Of a DNA stretch of 64,000 bases, positions 146-4,537 are shown piece by piece. The translations under genes and the position numbers were made by a program. Location of the stretch: assembly GCA_965195285.1 (NCBI GenBank), contig CBDAFS010000009.1:28860-92859 (forward strand). The letters are read 5' to 3'. This DNA is from an uncultured Aminicenantes bacterium. GTDB taxonomy: Bacteria > Acidobacteriota > Aminicenantia > UBA2199. The notes beneath the pieces are model-generated. The model saw only the letters and a list, made by a program, of their open reading frames with translations. It was not told the DNA's origin and did no database searches. Position 1 is the stretch's first letter. The number at the start of each line of letters is the position of its first letter.

Positions 146-335
146 GCCTTTTTCATTGTACCCGGGAAAAATCTGTTGTCAAGAAAAGATTCAATTCACT
201 CAGATAGGCGCCTGGAAATATATTGAACTCATGCTTGTGTTTTATTCAAATCTGTCATAAACTAATAAAATGTTGAAGTTTGAGTTGAACGACGGACTTA
301 AATAAAGAGTTGTTGACCACAACAAGGAGTCAACC

Positions 336-1148
336 ATGATTATTGATGATATCAAAATCTCGCAGGCCATCATTGAAAATTATTTTCAAAAATTGTTGCT
401 GGCATTAGAACTTGATGTTGCACTGGTGGGGGCCGGTCCTTCCAATTTGTTATGCGGGACCATTCTGGGGGAATCTGGAGTGAAATCGGCAATTTTTGAA
501 TCAAAACTTTCACCCGGGGGAGGTATGTGGGGCGGGGGAATGATGTTCAATGACATTGTGGTTCAGGAATCCGCCTTACATCTGCTGGATAAGATGGATA
601 TTCGATATAAACCACACGACCAAGGTTATTATGTGGCGGACAGTGTGGAATCAACTTCCACCTTGATATCCAAATGTGTTAAAGCCGGCACCATAATTTT
701 TAATCTGGTAAAAGTTGTGGATGTAATGTTCAGTGAAAGCAGTGAGCTGGATAAAAATGCCCGACATAGCAAACGCATCAATGGTCTGGTCTTAAACTGG
801 TCACCGGTTGAAGCCACTTCTCTGCATGTAGATCCATTAACCATCCGGTCGAAGTTTGTGGTTGACGGTACCGGACACCTGGCCGAGGTGTGTTCGCTCA
901 TTACCCGGAAACTGGGTGAAGAATTGGATACCAAAACCGGTCAGGTGGTTGGCGAAATGTCCATGTGTGCCGATAAAGGGGAAGAACTAACCGTGTCGAA
1001 TTCGGTTGAAATTTTCCCCGGGTTGTATGTGACGGGCATGGCGGCCAATGCATCCAAAGGTGCACCCAGAATGGGGCCGATTTTTGGAGGCATGCTGCTT
1101 TCCGGAGAGAAGGTTGCCCGTGAATTAATCAGTCGATTGAACGAATGA
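336..1148 (+). CDS. thi4: Thiamine thiazole synthase (Thi4 family, His-type/sulfide-dependent)
   Basis: VGAGPS FAD motif, GGGMWGGG, LHVDP, PRMGPIFGGMLLSG; AGGAG RBS. Confidence 0.93.
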   Translation: MIIDDIKISQAIIENYFQKLLLALELDVALVGAGPSNLLCGTILGESGVKSAIFESKLSPGGGMWGGGMMFNDIVVQESALHLLDKMDIRYKPHDQGYYVADSVESTSTLISKCVKAGTIIFNLVKVVDVMFSESSELDKNARHSKRINGLVLNWSPVEATSLHVDPLTIRSKFVVDGTGHLAEVCSLITRKLGEELDTKTGQVVGEMSMCADKGEELTVSNSVEIFPGLYVTGMAANASKGAPRMGPIFGGMLLSGEKVARELISRLNE

Positions 1149-2266
1149 GACCGAAGCGATTTTGTCCTTTCTGCCAGCATATTTTATCAAAAAAAATTAT
1201 TGAAGGCTGCCAGCGGCTTTATTGCCCGCAATGTCAGAGTCCCCTGTATGAGAATCCAACCCCGGCCACTGCTGCGATTTACTTCAATGAAAACCGTGAG
1301 GTCCTGCTGGTGAAGAGAAAGGTAAACCCCAATAAGGGTGACTGGTGTTTGCCTGGCGGTTATGTTGAAATGGAGGAAGCCCCGGAAGCGTGTTGTCTGC
1401 GAGAGTTGAAAGAGGAGACCAATCTGGAGGGTGATATTAAGAAACTGGTGGGAGTCTATCTGAGTGAAAGTCCGGTTTACAAATCGGTATTGGTGATCGG
1501 CTATTGGTTGGCTGAAGTAAGGGGGGAGTTAATGGCGGGTGATGATTCCGAAGCCGTGCGGTTTTATCCGATCGATCAATTGCCAACTATTGCCTTTCGG
1601 AGCCACCGTTCCCTGATAGACGATGTCATGAGATTATCCGGAAATTTCAAATTAAGGCTGGCAGCGCCGGTGGAAAAGTTCCACTTTGGCGCTTATGTGA
1701 TTACCAGTTCAAATCATGTTGAAATGGCAAAAAGAGCCTGTGAGGCCGGAGCCCGCATCATTCAGTATCGGGATAAAGGTTCAGATAAAAGGGCGATTTT
1801 GAAAAAAGCCAAAGTAATCCGGAATATCACCCGGCAAACCAATACCCGATTCATGGTTAATGATCATATTGATATTGCTCGTTTGGCCCGGGCCGATGGC
1901 GTTCATCTGGGACAGGGTGATCTTCCGATTCATGAAGCCAGAATGCTCCTTCCCGATCATTTTATTATTGGCTTTTCCACCCATTCACTGGAACAGGCAC
2001 TCCAGGCCCAGGCTGACGGGGCGGATTATATTGCCATTGGCCCGGTTTTTTCAACTCCTACCAAGGAGGATTATCCGGCTGTGGGATTGGATATGGTTGA
2101 AAAGGTGATTAAAGCTGTTTCCATCCCGGTTGTGGCTATCGGTGGGTTAAATCTTGGAAATGTGGCTGATTTGAAGAAAATCGGAGTTGGAAATGTGGCC
2201 ATGATCAGAGCCTTTCAGCGGAATACCGAAATGATAGTCAAACAGTTAAATAAGCAACTTCTGTGA
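1145..2266 (+). CDS. thiE: Zn-ribbon Nudix hydrolase fused to thiamine-phosphate synthase
   Basis: CPFC/CPQC ribbon and Nudix box GGYVEMEE...RELKEET; C-terminal QYRDK, NDHID, GVHLGQ, STHS, TPTK, VAIGG; ATGA overlap with thi4. Confidence 0.88.
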   Translation: MRPKRFCPFCQHILSKKIIEGCQRLYCPQCQSPLYENPTPATAAIYFNENREVLLVKRKVNPNKGDWCLPGGYVEMEEAPEACCLRELKEETNLEGDIKKLVGVYLSESPVYKSVLVIGYWLAEVRGELMAGDDSEAVRFYPIDQLPTIAFRSHRSLIDDVMRLSGNFKLRLAAPVEKFHFGAYVITSSNHVEMAKRACEAGARIIQYRDKGSDKRAILKKAKVIRNITRQTNTRFMVNDHIDIARLARADGVHLGQGDLPIHEARMLLPDHFIIGFSTHSLEQALQAQADGADYIAIGPVFSTPTKEDYPAVGLDMVEKVIKAVSIPVVAIGGLNLGNVADLKKIGVGNVAMIRAFQRNTEMIVKQLNKQLL

Positions 2267-2302: not shown

Positions 2303-3040
2303 TTATTTCTTTCCCACTGTCGCAATATAGATAACAACCTGTTTTTCCGTATTACACTTCAGGATTTGGTTCAGGTCATCGTCGGAAAAAGCGGCAATAG
2401 CACAGACTCCGCACTGAATGGCTTCAGCACTCAGGTAGAGATTCTGACAGACATGTCCGGCATCCAGGAACAGGTAACGATATCCCCTCTCACTATAACG
2501 CCAGTTCATTCGGTAGGGGACTGCTGTCCAGATAAAGGTGGCCGCACAGGTTTTAACAAAGGTCTGTCCCAGACAGGCTGCGGTGATTTTATCCGCAATT
2601 TGGAGATCCGAATTAATTTCTATCAGGGTGTGATTAATGGCCAGAAAGCGGTAAAGTCCGGGATTCAATTGTGTGACCTGGTTAATCAGTAAATAGGTTT
2701 CCAGGGCATGGCGGGCACCGGCAGAGGGCACGGTTCGTAAGGTTCCGGATCCCGGATATAGGTGTTTGACCCCCTGAGTACACCAGAGCAGGAAGGACAA
2801 TTCCTCTAGTGTGAGGGGGATTTTTGAATAGTTACGAATACTCTGACGGTTTTCGATAGCACTTTTTATACTGATATCGGATACGGTTTTGGGTTCGGGC
2901 CTGGGGAGATCGATTTTAGGTTGATTAGGATCGCTTTCAATTTCCAAAGGAGGAGATGAGATCCCTTTCATCTGGTCTGAGATACTCAGATTCTGAAATT
3001 TTGTTTTTTCTAAAAACAACTTGCCAATATTTTTTTCCAA
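2303..3040 (-). CDS. SagB/ThcOx-family nitroreductase-like dehydrogenase
   Basis: RQSIRNY, RTVPSAGARHALETY, DAGHVCQNLYL; TTG start with GGAG RBS. Confidence 0.85.
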   Translation of the reverse strand: MEKNIGKLFLEKTKFQNLSISDQMKGISSPPLEIESDPNQPKIDLPRPEPKTVSDISIKSAIENRQSIRNYSKIPLTLEELSFLLWCTQGVKHLYPGSGTLRTVPSAGARHALETYLLINQVTQLNPGLYRFLAINHTLIEINSDLQIADKITAACLGQTFVKTCAATFIWTAVPYRMNWRYSERGYRYLFLDAGHVCQNLYLSAEAIQCGVCAIAAFSDDDLNQILKCNTEKQVVIYIATVGKK

Positions 3041-3052
3041 ATCAAACTCCTT

Positions 3053-3994
3053 TTAGTGGGTTTGGTGGGGACGGTCTTTTGTTTTTTTGATTTTTTCTTT
3101 TAATAGTCTTTGTTTGGTGCTGGAATACAAACTTCCCAGTGATGAAAACTTAATATCACTAAATTCGGGTAACTCTTTGATTTCTCGATACTTCAACCCT
3201 GATTTGTCCCTTAACAATATCAATAGTTCTCCCCTTAATCTTTTTCCCTTATGGCTATTAATATCAATCTCAGAAATTCGGATATTCTTTTTTCTTTCAA
3301 ACTCGTAATATACTTTTTCTATAGACTCAAAATACATGTCATCCTTTCTTTTATTATTTCTTATAGATTCAGTTTTCCTTCGATCATATTTTTCCTCTGC
3401 CTCTTTTATAAACTTTTCTGTTCCCAAGATTCTGCCGAATTTGGTAGGGTAGTCAATCATATTTTTTATGTTGAATTTATTCACAGATTCAATAAAGTTC
3501 CTTTTACTGATAAATAAATTCTCAACAAATTTCATATCCACGAATGATTGATTTACTCTTCTGAAATATAATCTTGCGCTGGACCAAGTGTAATCCAAAA
3601 AATTCGGACTGATACCTGCTTCAACCGGATTTTGTAAAACATATTTTATAGCAGTTAATAAATAGGCTTCATCTTGGATCAAGGTTGATCGAAAACGATC
3701 TTGAAATACATATCCTTTTCCCCCGACTGACTTCCTGTAGTAGATACCATAAGAACTATTGAGTTGCTTCATAAAATCAGATAATTTTCCCGATGCATTC
3801 TCCAAGACCAGATGAAAATGATTATCCATGACACAATAACAAAAAATTCTGATTCTAGATAAGTTCGATTTCTCCGTCAGTAATTGAATATATTTTTGTT
3901 TCATTTCAGCGGAGAGAAATATATTTTCGTTACCCAATCCTTTATTCATTACATGATGGAAGGCACCCACCCAGGTTAATCGTGCATGTCTCAT
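3053..3994 (-). mobile_element. REP-associated tyrosine transposase (RAYT, Y1/HUH, IS200/IS605 superfamily) with C-terminal HTH-like extension
   Basis: HHVMNKG, CVMDNHFHL (HUH), VFQDRF, YVLQNPV (catalytic Tyr), WSS; visibly AT-richer than neighbours. Confidence 0.88.
3066..3095 (+). repeat. 30-bp repeat, copy 1 (left inverted repeat of the RAYT segment)
   Basis: TGGGGACGGTCTTTTGTTTTTTTGATTTTT; 29/30 identical to the reverse complement of 4011-4040. Confidence 0.9.
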
Positions 3995-4117: not shown

Positions 4118-4537
4118 ATGGAAAAGGTAAGTCGTTTCGGGGTTTCGTTGGAATCATCACTTCTGAACCAATTTGATCCGTTGTTGAAAAAACTGGGGTA
4201 CAAAAGCCGCTCAGAGGCTATTCGGGATCTGATTCGGGAACGGCTGGTGGCTGAAGAATGGAAAGTAGGTGATTTTAATACCATCGGGGTTCTGAGCCTG
4301 GTCTACAATCATCATATCCGGGAGCTTTCGGAGGCTCTGAACCGCATCCAGCATCGGAATCTGGAACTGATTATTTCCTCGACTCATATTCATGTGGATC
4401 GCCACAATTGTCTGGAGGTCATTATATTGAAAGGGAAGAGTCTTCAGATCAAGAAAATTTCCGATGAATTACTGAGTACCCGTGGAGTCAAGCACGGGAA
4501 ACTCATCATGACCACAACCGGTTCGCAGATCGATTGA
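4118..4537 (+). CDS. nikR: Nickel-responsive transcriptional regulator NikR
   Basis: RFGVSL ribbon, SRSEAIRDLIR, YNHH, HIHVDRHNCLEV, GVKHGKL. Confidence 0.93.
   Translation: MEKVSRFGVSLESSLLNQFDPLLKKLGYKSRSEAIRDLIRERLVAEEWKVGDFNTIGVLSLVYNHHIRELSEALNRIQHRNLELIISSTHIHVDRHNCLEVIILKGKSLQIKKISDELLSTRGVKHGKLIMTTTGSQID

Follow-up and report, generated by a model that had tools for sequence, protein, structure and literature searches.

A Zn-ribbon Nudix–ThiE fusion encoded next to thi4 in an uncultured Aminicenantes bacterium as a candidate enzyme for thiazole release in vitamin B1 synthesis

The window analyzed here, 64,000 nucleotides of a contig from an uncultured Aminicenantes bacterium (GenBank assembly GCA_965195285.1), contains a thi4 gene that overlaps a second gene encoding a Zn-ribbon Nudix domain fused to a ThiE domain. 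This fusion is a candidate, not a proof, for a step that is still missing from vitamin B1 synthesis, the release of the thiazole by cleavage of the ADP-linked thiazole (ADT) produced by Thi4 before it reaches ThiE. In the best explanation, to which we give an even chance of being correct as a whole, the fusion is older than its association with thi4, its Nudix domain acts on a conserved class of AMP-P-X compounds, and ADT would be a side substrate.

The enzyme that cleaves ADT ahead of ThiE or ThiN was still called unidentified in literature of 2014 and 2022, as far as the available portions of these sources go. The premise of an earlier sequence-only reading, that the ADT hydrolase lacks an assignment, is thus sound. 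That reading took the Nudix domain to be a dedicated ADT diphosphatase, fused to ThiE in order to channel carboxythiazole phosphate to thiamine phosphate, and this gap in the literature speaks for it. The word Nudix is not used in the available text of a 2026 survey of Thi4 neighborhoods (PMC13325395), and the literature searched, supplements aside, yielded neither a described link of Nudix with ThiE or Thi4 nor an identified ADT hydrolase; Nudix genes could be listed among the gene neighborhoods of PMC8454699 (Supplementary Figure S1) and PMC13325395 (Table S3), both outside that search. The ADT-cleaving step matters for the reconstruction of thiamine pathways and for moving catalytic THI4s into crops.

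Organization of the thi4 locus

The thi4 gene occupies positions 336..1148 of the forward strand and encodes a protein of 270 residues, assigned by profiles and alignment as a His-type (non-Cys) ADP-thiazole synthase. A Shine-Dalgarno-like hexamer, AAGGAG (325..330, forward strand), ends 5 nt 5' of its ATG. The fusion gene follows on the same strand (1145..2266; 373 residues). As had been claimed, the two genes overlap by ATGA (1145..1148), which can be read directly, the ATG of the fusion being positions 1145–1147 and the TGA of thi4 positions 1146–1148. The overlap suggests translational coupling of thi4 and the fusion, a point in favor of a dedicated ADT diphosphatase. In a scan of positions 1–2600, promoter-like sites were not enriched (5, against a mean of 3.9 in shuffled sequences) and terminator-like sites were somewhat commoner than in shuffles (7, against 2.6 with a standard deviation of 1.8), with none flanking thi4 and the fusion. 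No TPP riboswitch was found 5' of thi4, nor elsewhere in the window or the genome.

Thi4 is predicted to be of the catalytic type

Thi4 matches PF01946 with 242.5 bits (cut-off 26.2) and, over residues 5–268, the "sulfide-dependent adenosine diphosphate thiazole synthase" model TIGR00292 with 288.2 bits (cut-off 148.3). The best solved match is THI4 of Thermovibrio ammonificans (PDB code 7RK0), to which the window Thi4 aligns over its full length with an E-value of 7e-82. His164, in the motif SLHVDP, corresponds in the alignment to the residue that precedes MDP in fungal THI4, a position occupied by Cys in suicide THI4s. At this active-site position 7RK0 has Met instead of the His of the window protein. 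The His is common to the window Thi4 and the methanococcal sulfide-dependent THI4s (4Y4M and 4Y4N; full-length alignments, E 5e-54 to 8e-50), and is invariant in 19 relatives. With His in place of the active-site Cys, the window Thi4 is predicted to be of the catalytic rather than the suicide type; the significance of Cys or non-Cys at this position is treated in the available text of PMC8454699. According to the same paper, 16 of 23 non-Cys THI4s complemented an E. coli ΔthiG strain without any partner, which argues against a dedicated ADT diphosphatase, and of the 26 genomes in its survey only 6 had ThiG as well. The window genome is unusual in that it encodes ThiF-ThiS-ThiG-ThiH in addition to Thi4.

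Structure and conservation of the fusion protein

The fusion protein begins with a Zn-ribbon formed by two CxxC pairs, C7-x2-C10 and C27-x2-C30 (1163..1234); PF14803 (Zn_ribbon_Nudix) is recorded on its relatives. The Nudix domain (residues 39–158, 1259..1618) scores 77.8 bits against PF00293 (cut-off 21.1) and is joined by a variable linker (residues ~165–181, 1637..1687) to the ThiE domain (residues 184–356, 1694..2212), which scores 199.3 bits against PF02581, TMP-TENI (cut-off 27). All of these features lie on the forward strand, and the matches bear out the claim that a single ORF joins a Zn-ribbon Nudix domain to ThiE. The fusion is not a chance ORF, as it has full-length matches, at 50–92% identity, in at least 120 protein clusters that contain both Pfam domains.

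The ThiE domain also passes the equivalog domain model TIGR00693 (190.4 bits, cut-off 145.1, residues 186–360) and is close to solved structures (1XI3, E 2.9e-39; 1G4T/2TPS, E 4.5e-32). Residues Q207, R209, K211, N239, D240, H254, D259, S278, T304, K307 and G333/G334, which we take to form the substrate and metal site, are identical in 1G4T and 1XI3 and conserved in 32 relatives. The single deviation is R355, in place of the Ser of solved ThiEs; with that exception the catalytic motifs are intact, as the sequence-only reading had stated. The fusion is the sole PF02581 match in the 94.9%-complete window genome, in which thiC, thiD and thiFSGH are located elsewhere, and it fills the ThiE role there. 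The database name "thiamine phosphate synthase" alone leaves without explanation a Nudix domain that is conserved and predicted to be catalytically intact.

The Nudix box spans G72–L94 (GGYVEMEEAPEACCLRELKEETNL; 1358..1426, forward strand) and reads G72-x5-E78-x7-R86-E87-L-K-E90-E91-T-N93-L94, which fits the consensus GX5EX7REUXEEXGU except for the final G; the window protein has N93 at this position, where its relatives have G. Conservation was assessed in an alignment of 85 Nudix domains, comprising 8 rows from Thi4 contexts (that of the window fusion included), 8 from ThiG and 11 from thiM contexts, 2 unassigned, 53 stand-alone homologues and 4 divergent stand-alones. None of the 85 domains deviates at E75, E78, R86, E87, E90 or E91, nor at N37/P38 (YENP), W67/L69/P70/G72 (WCLPGG), G132 or D134. 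Exclusion of the 4 divergent stand-alones leaves 81 rows, among which C68, G71, F151 and H154 do not vary wherever the row is complete. The four Zn-ribbon cysteines are likewise invariant in all 85 domains, and so in every context group. Thi4, ThiG and thiM contexts and the 53 stand-alone homologues share one set of signature residues, which weighs against a domain dedicated to ADT. At P110, 16 residues past L94, Pro is found in 4 of 7 Thi4-context rows, in all ThiG-context (8/8), thiM-context (11/11) and unassigned fused rows (2/2), and in 16 of the 53 stand-alone homologues. A conserved Pro ~16 residues after the Nudix box is a motif of the ADP-ribose pyrophosphatase subfamily.

An AF2 model of residues 1–170 has a pLDDT of 89.4. 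In a Foldseek search its nearest fold is 3CNG, followed by E. coli NudC, and there are partial matches to profile models of NAD diphosphatase and of NadM-Nudix ADP-ribose pyrophosphatases, the latter at ~48 bits against cut-offs above 350. A fold of the AMP-P-X type would suit ADT as a substrate. No solved or NCBIfam-curated close relative with a known substrate was found, the best matches being structural-genomics entries, and matches in the ESM Atlas are unnamed Zn-ribbon Nudix clusters only. The full-length model has a pTM of 0.55; linker residues 167–177 fall below a pLDDT of 50, and the linker columns of the alignment are gappy and unconserved. With a linker this flexible, the proposal that ADT is channeled to thiamine phosphate finds no support, and the dedicated role proposed for the Nudix domain loses ground with it.

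Genomic contexts of the fusion

The Nudix and ThiE domains are found together in 28 genomes, fused or probably fused in 27 and split in one. Thi4 is present in 7 of the 28, ThiG in 9 and neither in 13 (both occur in the window genome), the counts of absent Thi4 and ThiG among genomes G001–G050, for which completeness is not given, to be read accordingly. In 11 of the 13 genomes without Thi4 and ThiG, thiM adjoins the fusion. The subset from the homologue search (20 genomes with Nudix beside or fused to ThiE) divides into 5 with Thi4, 5 with ThiG and 10 with neither; in 8 of these 10, thiM (PF02110, 277.6 bits) lies convergently right after the fusion. The nine other genomes of the window's taxonomic family, each at least 92% complete, comprise seven with the fusion, one with split genes and one with a plain ThiE; one has Thi4, four have ThiG, and the remaining four, three of them with the fusion, have an adjacent thiM. 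The expectation that the fusion would co-occur with thi4 rather than with thiG/thiH is contradicted by these data, as only 7 of 28 genomes have thi4 and the others have ThiG or thiM salvage. The 21 genomes without Thi4 also stand against the claim that the fusion identifies the ADT hydrolase.

Neighboring genes are shared between the context types. A PF02578 gene on the reverse strand is followed by thi4 and the fusion in the window and in L027, and by the fusion directly, without thi4, in L009 and L011; the downstream block frr-pyrH-tsf-rpsB is common to ThiG-type loci and the Thi4-type locus L024. Under the best explanation, and with the same even chance, thi4 would come and go as an indel in one chromosomal slot, immediately upstream of the fusion. 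Where related genomes have thi4, it is always directly upstream of thiE (12/12), a position that speaks for ADT cleavage by the domain, be it as a dedicated or as a side activity. In the ThiE tree, and likewise in the Nudix tree (whose backbone branches lack resolution), the thiM-linked rows fall into a single clade, with the ThiG- and Thi4-linked rows grouped together.

In five close relatives with thi4-thiE the Nudix domain is gone and ThiE is plain; the ThiE tree could place four of these, all of them within the clade of fused proteins. The five genomes with thi4 and plain thiE contain only a Nudix paralogue of 34–43% identity, in which the signature is absent in all four cases examined. 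Taken with the contexts above, the loss of the domain beside a retained thi4 indicates that the Nudix domain is not required for Thi4 pathways, contrary to a dedicated role. A separate arrangement is seen in L028, where thi4, thiE and nudix are individual genes and nudix still follows thiE.

A hidden or divergent Nudix domain was sought in the thi4-thiE gaps of L021, L022, L023 and L026 and rejected; only short ORFs were found, with a plain thiE of ~200 residues.

Stand-alone homologues

Among the genomes of stand-alone homologues that were tested, 18 of 25 lack Thi4 and 7 have it. At 46 of the 55 loci analyzed, a class-II aldolase-like gene adjoins the stand-alone gene, and members with the same signature occur in non-thiamine contexts at 53 loci. 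In Desulfobacterales the stand-alone gene is a conserved syntenic housekeeping gene, near which no thiamine genes were found except at L056 (thiC/thiD at 2–4 kb, on the opposite strand) and L050 (a ThiF-like match). An overlap of the stand-alone gene with one for a DUF89 damage-control phosphatase (PF01937, 238–240 bits) is seen in two genomes. Two genomes of another family have deoB-nudix-thi4 as overlapping ORFs without thiE, an operon that speaks for action on ADT.

In a sample of 301 genomes of the phylum, 10 of 11 strong stand-alone homologues are in Thi4 genomes, against Thi4 in 38 of 301 genomes overall; this enrichment derives from few independent lineages (f27, f61, f4, f7 and f8), three of them in the window's class, where Thi4 is common. 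It would fit a dedicated ADT diphosphatase, but 26 of the 38 Thi4 genomes lack this Zn-ribbon Nudix family. These genomes, and the paralogues without the signature, imply that other hydrolases may deal with ADT in the window genome as well.

Proposed function of the Nudix domain

A predicted sulfide-dependent, His-type Thi4 would make ADT from NAD, glycine and sulfide in a coupled two-gene module, and the only ThiE of the genome would then couple HMP-PP with the thiazole phosphate. The N-terminal Nudix domain would not have been acquired for Thi4; the fusion is probably older and vertically inherited in the lineage, whatever the source of the thiazole. Its Nudix domain would represent a tight family of ~165-residue Zn-ribbon Nudix hydrolases with a fold like those of NudC and ADP-ribose pyrophosphatases, and the family substrate would be one conserved AMP-P-X class (ADP-ribose or NAD-like), not ADT specifically. 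In genomes with thi4, this domain is probably the best-placed enzyme to convert ADT to AMP and carboxythiazole phosphate for the attached ThiE. Cleavage of ADT would then be a side activity or an exaptation, not an essential function. One point against this explanation is that, if the family substrate had nothing to do with thiamine, the conserved joining of the domain to ThiE would go without explanation.

A candidate substrate is suggested by fold and context, and the identical active-site signature in fused and housekeeping stand-alone members points to one conserved substrate class. The occurrence of the fusion in Thi4, ThiG and thiM contexts with that signature, the 18 of 25 stand-alones without Thi4 and the loss of the domain argue that the fusion was not built for ADT. 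The overlap of a fusion gene with thi4 looked like a Rosetta-stone assignment; caution is warranted because the architecture probably predates the link to thi4 and mostly occurs without it. ADT is kept as a possible side substrate by the fold, by the enrichment in the phylum sample, by the constant place of thi4 directly upstream of thiE in the 12 related genomes and by three arrangements of thi4 and Nudix (thi4 followed by nudix::thiE, thi4-thiE-nudix and deoB-nudix-thi4). A more far-reaching reading, in which the WCLPGG/GDD Zn-ribbon Nudix is an AMP-P-X diphosphatase that acts as ADT diphosphatase in Thi4 bacteria and was recruited to thi4 at least three times, is tentative and distinctly less probable. 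If true, it would for the first time link a gene to the step still missing from the eukaryote/archaeal-type thiazole branch.

An alternative, which we consider unlikely, is that the Nudix domain serves ThiE generally by cleaving a thiamine-related diphosphate present with any thiazole source, such as damaged thiamine diphosphates (as Tnr3/NUDT20-type Nudix enzymes do), HMP-PP or adenylated thiamine phosphates, while ADT is cut by other enzymes. Goyer is said to have described in 2013 a precedent for a Nudix domain fused to a thiamine enzyme, and one also appears in Table 4 of PMC4921024, in its available portion. Retention of the ThiE fusion in all three contexts, the like grouping of rows in both trees, the nudix gene still following thiE in L028 and the overlaps with the DUF89 gene are all consistent with such a role. 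However, the 53 same-signature loci in non-thiamine contexts and the fold neighbors, which are adenine-dinucleotide enzymes, are not, and the likeness to Tnr3/NUDT20 is one of description.

It is rather improbable that the fusion is neutral, that is, that a housekeeping ADP-ribose or NAD(H) diphosphatase joined an ancestral thiE and has no thiamine role in any context. The housekeeping synteny in Desulfobacterales, the unconserved, disordered linker and the loss of the Nudix domain without loss of thiE would agree with this. Against it, the fusion persists over deep divergence (45–60% identity) with both domains conserved, thi4 and the Nudix family were juxtaposed independently without thiE, and stand-alone homologues are enriched in Thi4 genomes. 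The least probable account is the dedicated ADT diphosphatase, which is very unlikely in view of the contexts, losses and absences described above. The locus provides a concrete and cheaply assayed candidate with natural controls, namely the same domain in ThiG-type, thiM-type and stand-alone genes.

Comparison with known systems

E. coli NudC (5IW4, 5IW5 and 7E44), an NAD(H) diphosphatase that also decaps NAD-RNA, has a Zn-ribbon directly before the Nudix domain, as does the window protein. The two superpose in Foldseek over 166–172 columns (E ~1e-9) at an identity of only 19–20%. The N-terminal domain of NudC is absent from the window protein, which reaches 30.6 bits, in a partial match, against the NudC model NF001299 (cut-off 158). 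The motif SQPWPFPxS, which we take to be the NADH-type motif of NudC downstream of the Nudix box, was not found in the fusion sequence. The best structural match is 3CNG, a Zn-ribbon Nudix protein from Nitrosomonas europaea (E 2e-13, 30% identity), whose sequence match to the window Nudix (E 5e-13) spans the Zn-ribbon. 3CNG is a stand-alone protein of ~180 residues with WTLPAG, whereas the window family has WCLPGG.

The Tnr3-type proteins (the S. pombe Nudix-thiamine diphosphokinase fusion and plant NUDT20/24), which act in thiamine damage pre-emption, resemble the window protein in that a Nudix domain is tied to a thiamine enzyme; compared by description only, the partner is TPK in Tnr3 and ThiE in the window. 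The Tnr3-type Nudix is listed as a thiamine "Pyrophosphatase" in Table 4 of PMC4921024, and is also described in PMC4120688, within the available parts of both papers.

The PA4400/PRK08999 family (NF006530, MutT-ThiE-like) of beta- and gammaproteobacteria shares with the window fusion an N-terminal Nudix domain and a C-terminal TMP-TENI fold. According to the available text of PMC7424265, loss of PA4400 slows growth on minimal medium, except when thiamine is added. The window protein scores 125.9 bits against NF006530, below the cut-off of 245, and thus lies outside this family, in agreement with the earlier remark that MutT-TenI/ThiE-like fusions found elsewhere occur in a different context. 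Its Nudix domain is NudC-like rather than of the MutT type and is preceded by a Zn-ribbon, and its C-terminal domain, distinct from that of the PA4400 family, scores above the cut-off of the ThiE equivalog model and is the only ThiE of its genome.

Gene pair and domain architecture

The first ORF (336–1148, plus strand, 270 residues) encodes Thi4, scoring 242.5 bits against PF01946 in a profile search and 288.2 bits against TIGR00292 ('sulfide-dependent adenosine diphosphate thiazole synthase', cut-off 148.3). It is closest to the catalytic THI4 of Thermovibrio ammonificans (7RK0, E 7e-82), with the methanococcal enzymes also near. The place of the sacrificial cysteine of fungal and plant THI4s is occupied by His164 (in SLHVDP), which is invariant across 19 relatives. 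The thi4 stop overlaps the start of the co-directional second ORF (1145–2266, plus strand, 373 residues) in an ATGA at 1145–1148. This ORF contains two CxxC pairs (residues 7–30), a Nudix domain (residues 39–158; PF00293, 77.8 bits) and a ThiE domain (residues 184–356; PF02581, 199.3 bits; TIGR00693, 190.4 bits against a cut-off of 145.1). Every acidic residue of the Nudix box (G72–L94) is present, and the residues aligned with the solved ThiEs 1XI3 and 1G4T/2TPS are conserved. The ORFs, profile scores and overlap therefore bear out the sequence-only reading of thi4 overlapping a single Nudix-ThiE ORF with intact motifs. Past the fusion lie three genes with no thiamine connection: one of the nitroreductase family (2303–3040, minus strand), one for a 313-residue protein weakly matching the IS200-like Y1 transposase domain PF01797 (33.6 bits; 3053–3994, minus strand) and one for a nickel regulator of the NikR type (4118–4537, plus strand).

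An alignment of 18 fusion sequences has a mean column identity of 64%, with both domains strongly conserved and the linker variable. In the full-length AF2 model the domains are confident, linker residues 167–177 have pLDDT below 50, and the pTM is 0.55 (0.75 for the Nudix domain alone). Built on 18 sequences only, the model is weak evidence; it lends no support to a fixed tunnel between the domains or to the earlier proposal that ADP-thiazole (ADT) may be channelled to thiamine phosphate. R355 (2207–2209) is invariant in the ThiE clade of the fusion and is serine in the solved 1XI3 and 1G4T (I-R-A vs I-S-A). T279/H280 (1979–1984) and P300 (2042–2044) of proteins from genomes with Thi4 or ThiG are replaced by C, S/T and A in the clade from genomes with thiM. 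These differences may track carboxylated versus plain thiazole phosphate.

The fusion is the sole PF02581 match in its own genome (94.9% complete), which also carries thiC, thiD and a complete thiF-thiS-thiG-thiH cluster on a different contig (C18, locus L005, 8755–11819, minus strand). Together with thi4, this cluster gives the genome two thiazole routes and one ThiE; ThiG is found in none of the other six fusion genomes with Thi4. No TPP riboswitch (RF00059) was detected anywhere in this genome or in positions 1–400 of the window despite the presence of thiC, thiD, thiE, thi4 and thiG; the thiamine genes must be regulated in some other way.

Distribution of the fusion and its thiazole sources

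A homologue search returned at least 120 protein clusters with both Pfam domains (50–92% identity, about full coverage). Their source names are plain 'thiamine phosphate synthase', except for one JGI record with 'thiamine monophosphate synthase/ADP-ribose pyrophosphatase YjhB'. Scanning species-representative genomes yielded 80 loci, sorted by tblastn, with Nudix fused to or adjoining ThiE in 20 genomes, counting two loci (L027 and L044) where the fusion ORF runs off the contig end; genome G018 has separate genes in the order thi4-thiE-nudix. Whole-genome six-frame searches of these 20 found Thi4 in five, ThiG in five and neither in ten. In eight of the last ten, a convergent thiM (PF02110, 277.6 bits) comes immediately after the fusion; the remaining two loci stop at the fusion itself.

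Nine other genomes of the window's family, each at least 92% complete, contain a full fusion (seven), a split one (one) or a plain ThiE (one). Thi4 is present in one (G317), immediately upstream of the fusion, ThiG in four, and thiM is adjacent in the remaining four, including the plain-ThiE genome G171. At one locus of this family (L114, genome G247, contig C53), the Nudix and ThiE parts lie side by side, with a TAA within the Nudix match in one search; the fusion there may be split or decaying. Within a 301-genome phylum sample, the full-length fusion is confined to the window's own family; three genomes flagged unpublished (G074, G099, G202) contribute there only to the counts, as lacking both Thi4 and a strong Nudix match. 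When the sets are pooled, with the window included and G135 (identical to G004) counted once, the 28 genomes with this Nudix plus ThiE comprise seven with Thi4, nine with ThiG and 13 with neither, the window's genome having both. The expected co-occurrence of the fusion with thi4 rather than thiG thus failed, and an origin of the fusion for ADT is not supported.

The gene order at related loci shows that thi4 is a present-or-absent gene in one chromosomal slot. A minus-strand PF02578 gene is followed by thi4 and the fusion in the window and L027, and in L009 and L011 the fusion comes directly after the same PF02578 gene, with no thi4 between. An frr-pyrH-tsf-rpsB cluster after the fusion is common to L009, L011 and L012 (ThiG genomes) and L024 (a Thi4 genome). 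The ThiE tree gives no direction, gain or loss, for thi4. At five loci (L021, L022, L023, L026 and L030), a thi4 66–72% identical to that of the window is followed directly by plain thiE. Four of these five plain ThiEs form one clade (SH-aLRT 97) nested within a larger clade (SH-aLRT 98) whose other members are fused, with the fused clade of thiM genomes outside; this placement indicates loss of the Nudix domain with thi4 retained. No ThiG was found in these five genomes, and their only Nudix homologues, encoded elsewhere, are distant: in four genomes the match spans the whole domain (34–37% identity) but lacks the WCLPGG, F151, H154 signature, and in the fifth (G024) it covers residues 39–113 only (43% identity).

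Nudix family and substrate class

The remaining 53 loci of the scan encode stand-alone Nudix proteins of ~165 residues, mostly from Desulfobacterales and 45–52% identical to the window's Nudix domain; of 25 genomes with such a gene that were tested for Thi4, only seven have it. Without exception, the 85 aligned Nudix domains share the four Zn-ribbon cysteines, N37/P38 of the YENP motif, R58, W67/L69/P70/G72 of WCLPGG, the Nudix-box residues, G132 and D134. The fused groups and the 53 stand-alones also agree fully at C68, G71, F151 and H154 (rows intact at that column), and nearly so at Y35 and D133. This invariance speaks for a single substrate class whatever the context.

The structure nearest to the AF2 model of residues 1–170 (pLDDT 89.4) is the uncharacterized 3CNG, followed by E. 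coli NudC, which matches over ribbon and Nudix fold (19–20% identity), and then by generic Nudix folds, among them ADP-ribose-bound NrtR and NadM-Nudix. The only NCBIfam matches, all sub-threshold, are to models of NAD diphosphatase and of NadM-Nudix ADP-ribose pyrophosphatase. These neighbors suggest AMP-P-X (ADP-ribose- or NAD-like) substrates; the sequence and structure matches include no close relative whose substrate has been measured.

In 46 of the 55 loci analyzed (L031–L085), a class-II aldolase-like gene (PF01116) lies directly upstream of the stand-alone Nudix gene, on the same strand. In Desulfobacterales (e.g. L032, 4438–6495) it encodes 428 residues and scores 88 bits against PF01116, far under every NCBIfam aldolase cut-off; mazG, cvpA, phoH and a 7TM-HD gene lie further along. 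In L152 (1495–2846) and L157 (1483–2846), the stand-alone Nudix gene has a 4-nt overlap with the gene downstream of it, which encodes a DUF89/ARMT1 'damage-control phosphatase' (PF01937, 238–240 bits). This pair looks like a diphosphatase plus a phosphatase, and fits a house-cleaning role.

Relationship of the Nudix family to Thi4

A thi4 of the window's type is immediately upstream of thiE in all 12 related genomes having it. Two genomes of another family in the phylum, G164 (L179, 7247–9697) and G188 (L163, 711–3211), have overlapping deoB-nudix-thi4 ORFs with no thiE near them: a phosphopentomutase (NF003766, 520.8 bits), a stand-alone Nudix family member 42–43% identical to the window's domain, and a Thi4 (TIGR00292, 299 bits). 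In L179 there is also a transketolase-like gene ~4.4 kb further downstream. This arrangement links the Nudix family with ribose-phosphate metabolism as well as with Thi4.

Of the 301 phylum genomes, 11 carry a strong stand-alone homologue (at least 108 bits, full length), and ten of these 11 have Thi4 (one only as a contig-end fragment), against an overall Thi4 rate of 38/301. In family f27, five of six Thi4 genomes have a strong homologue versus neither of two without Thi4. The enrichment is suggestive only, since few independent lineages lie behind it (f27, f61, f4, f7 and f8; f20 is the exception), and three of these belong to the same class as the window, in which Thi4 is a common gene. 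The absence of a strong family member from 26 of the 38 Thi4 genomes speaks against necessity. With this, the low Thi4 counts among fusion and stand-alone genomes and the invariant signature, the claim that the fusion reveals the family of ADT hydrolases is unsupported. ADT hydrolysis may be a side role of the Nudix domain in thi4 genomes.

Comparison with known systems

The premise that this hydrolase is missing agrees with passages describing it as 'yet to be identified' (PMC4215014) and one that 'remains to be characterized' (PMC9544542). 'Nudix' is absent from the main texts of PMC13325395, which surveyed more than 400 Thi4 neighborhoods, and of PMC8454699; in the main texts of the literature searched, we found neither an identified ADT hydrolase nor a described Nudix-ThiE/Thi4 link. 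Non-Cys THI4s complement E. coli delta-thiG unaided in 16 of 23 cases (PMC8454699), so E. coli, a host without the Thi4 pathway, can process ADT. The fusion is a reasonable and cheaply testable candidate for this long-missing step. Alongside the known MutT-ThiE-like fusion, PA4400 (PMC7424265), it extends the theme of a Nudix domain fused to a thiamine enzyme.
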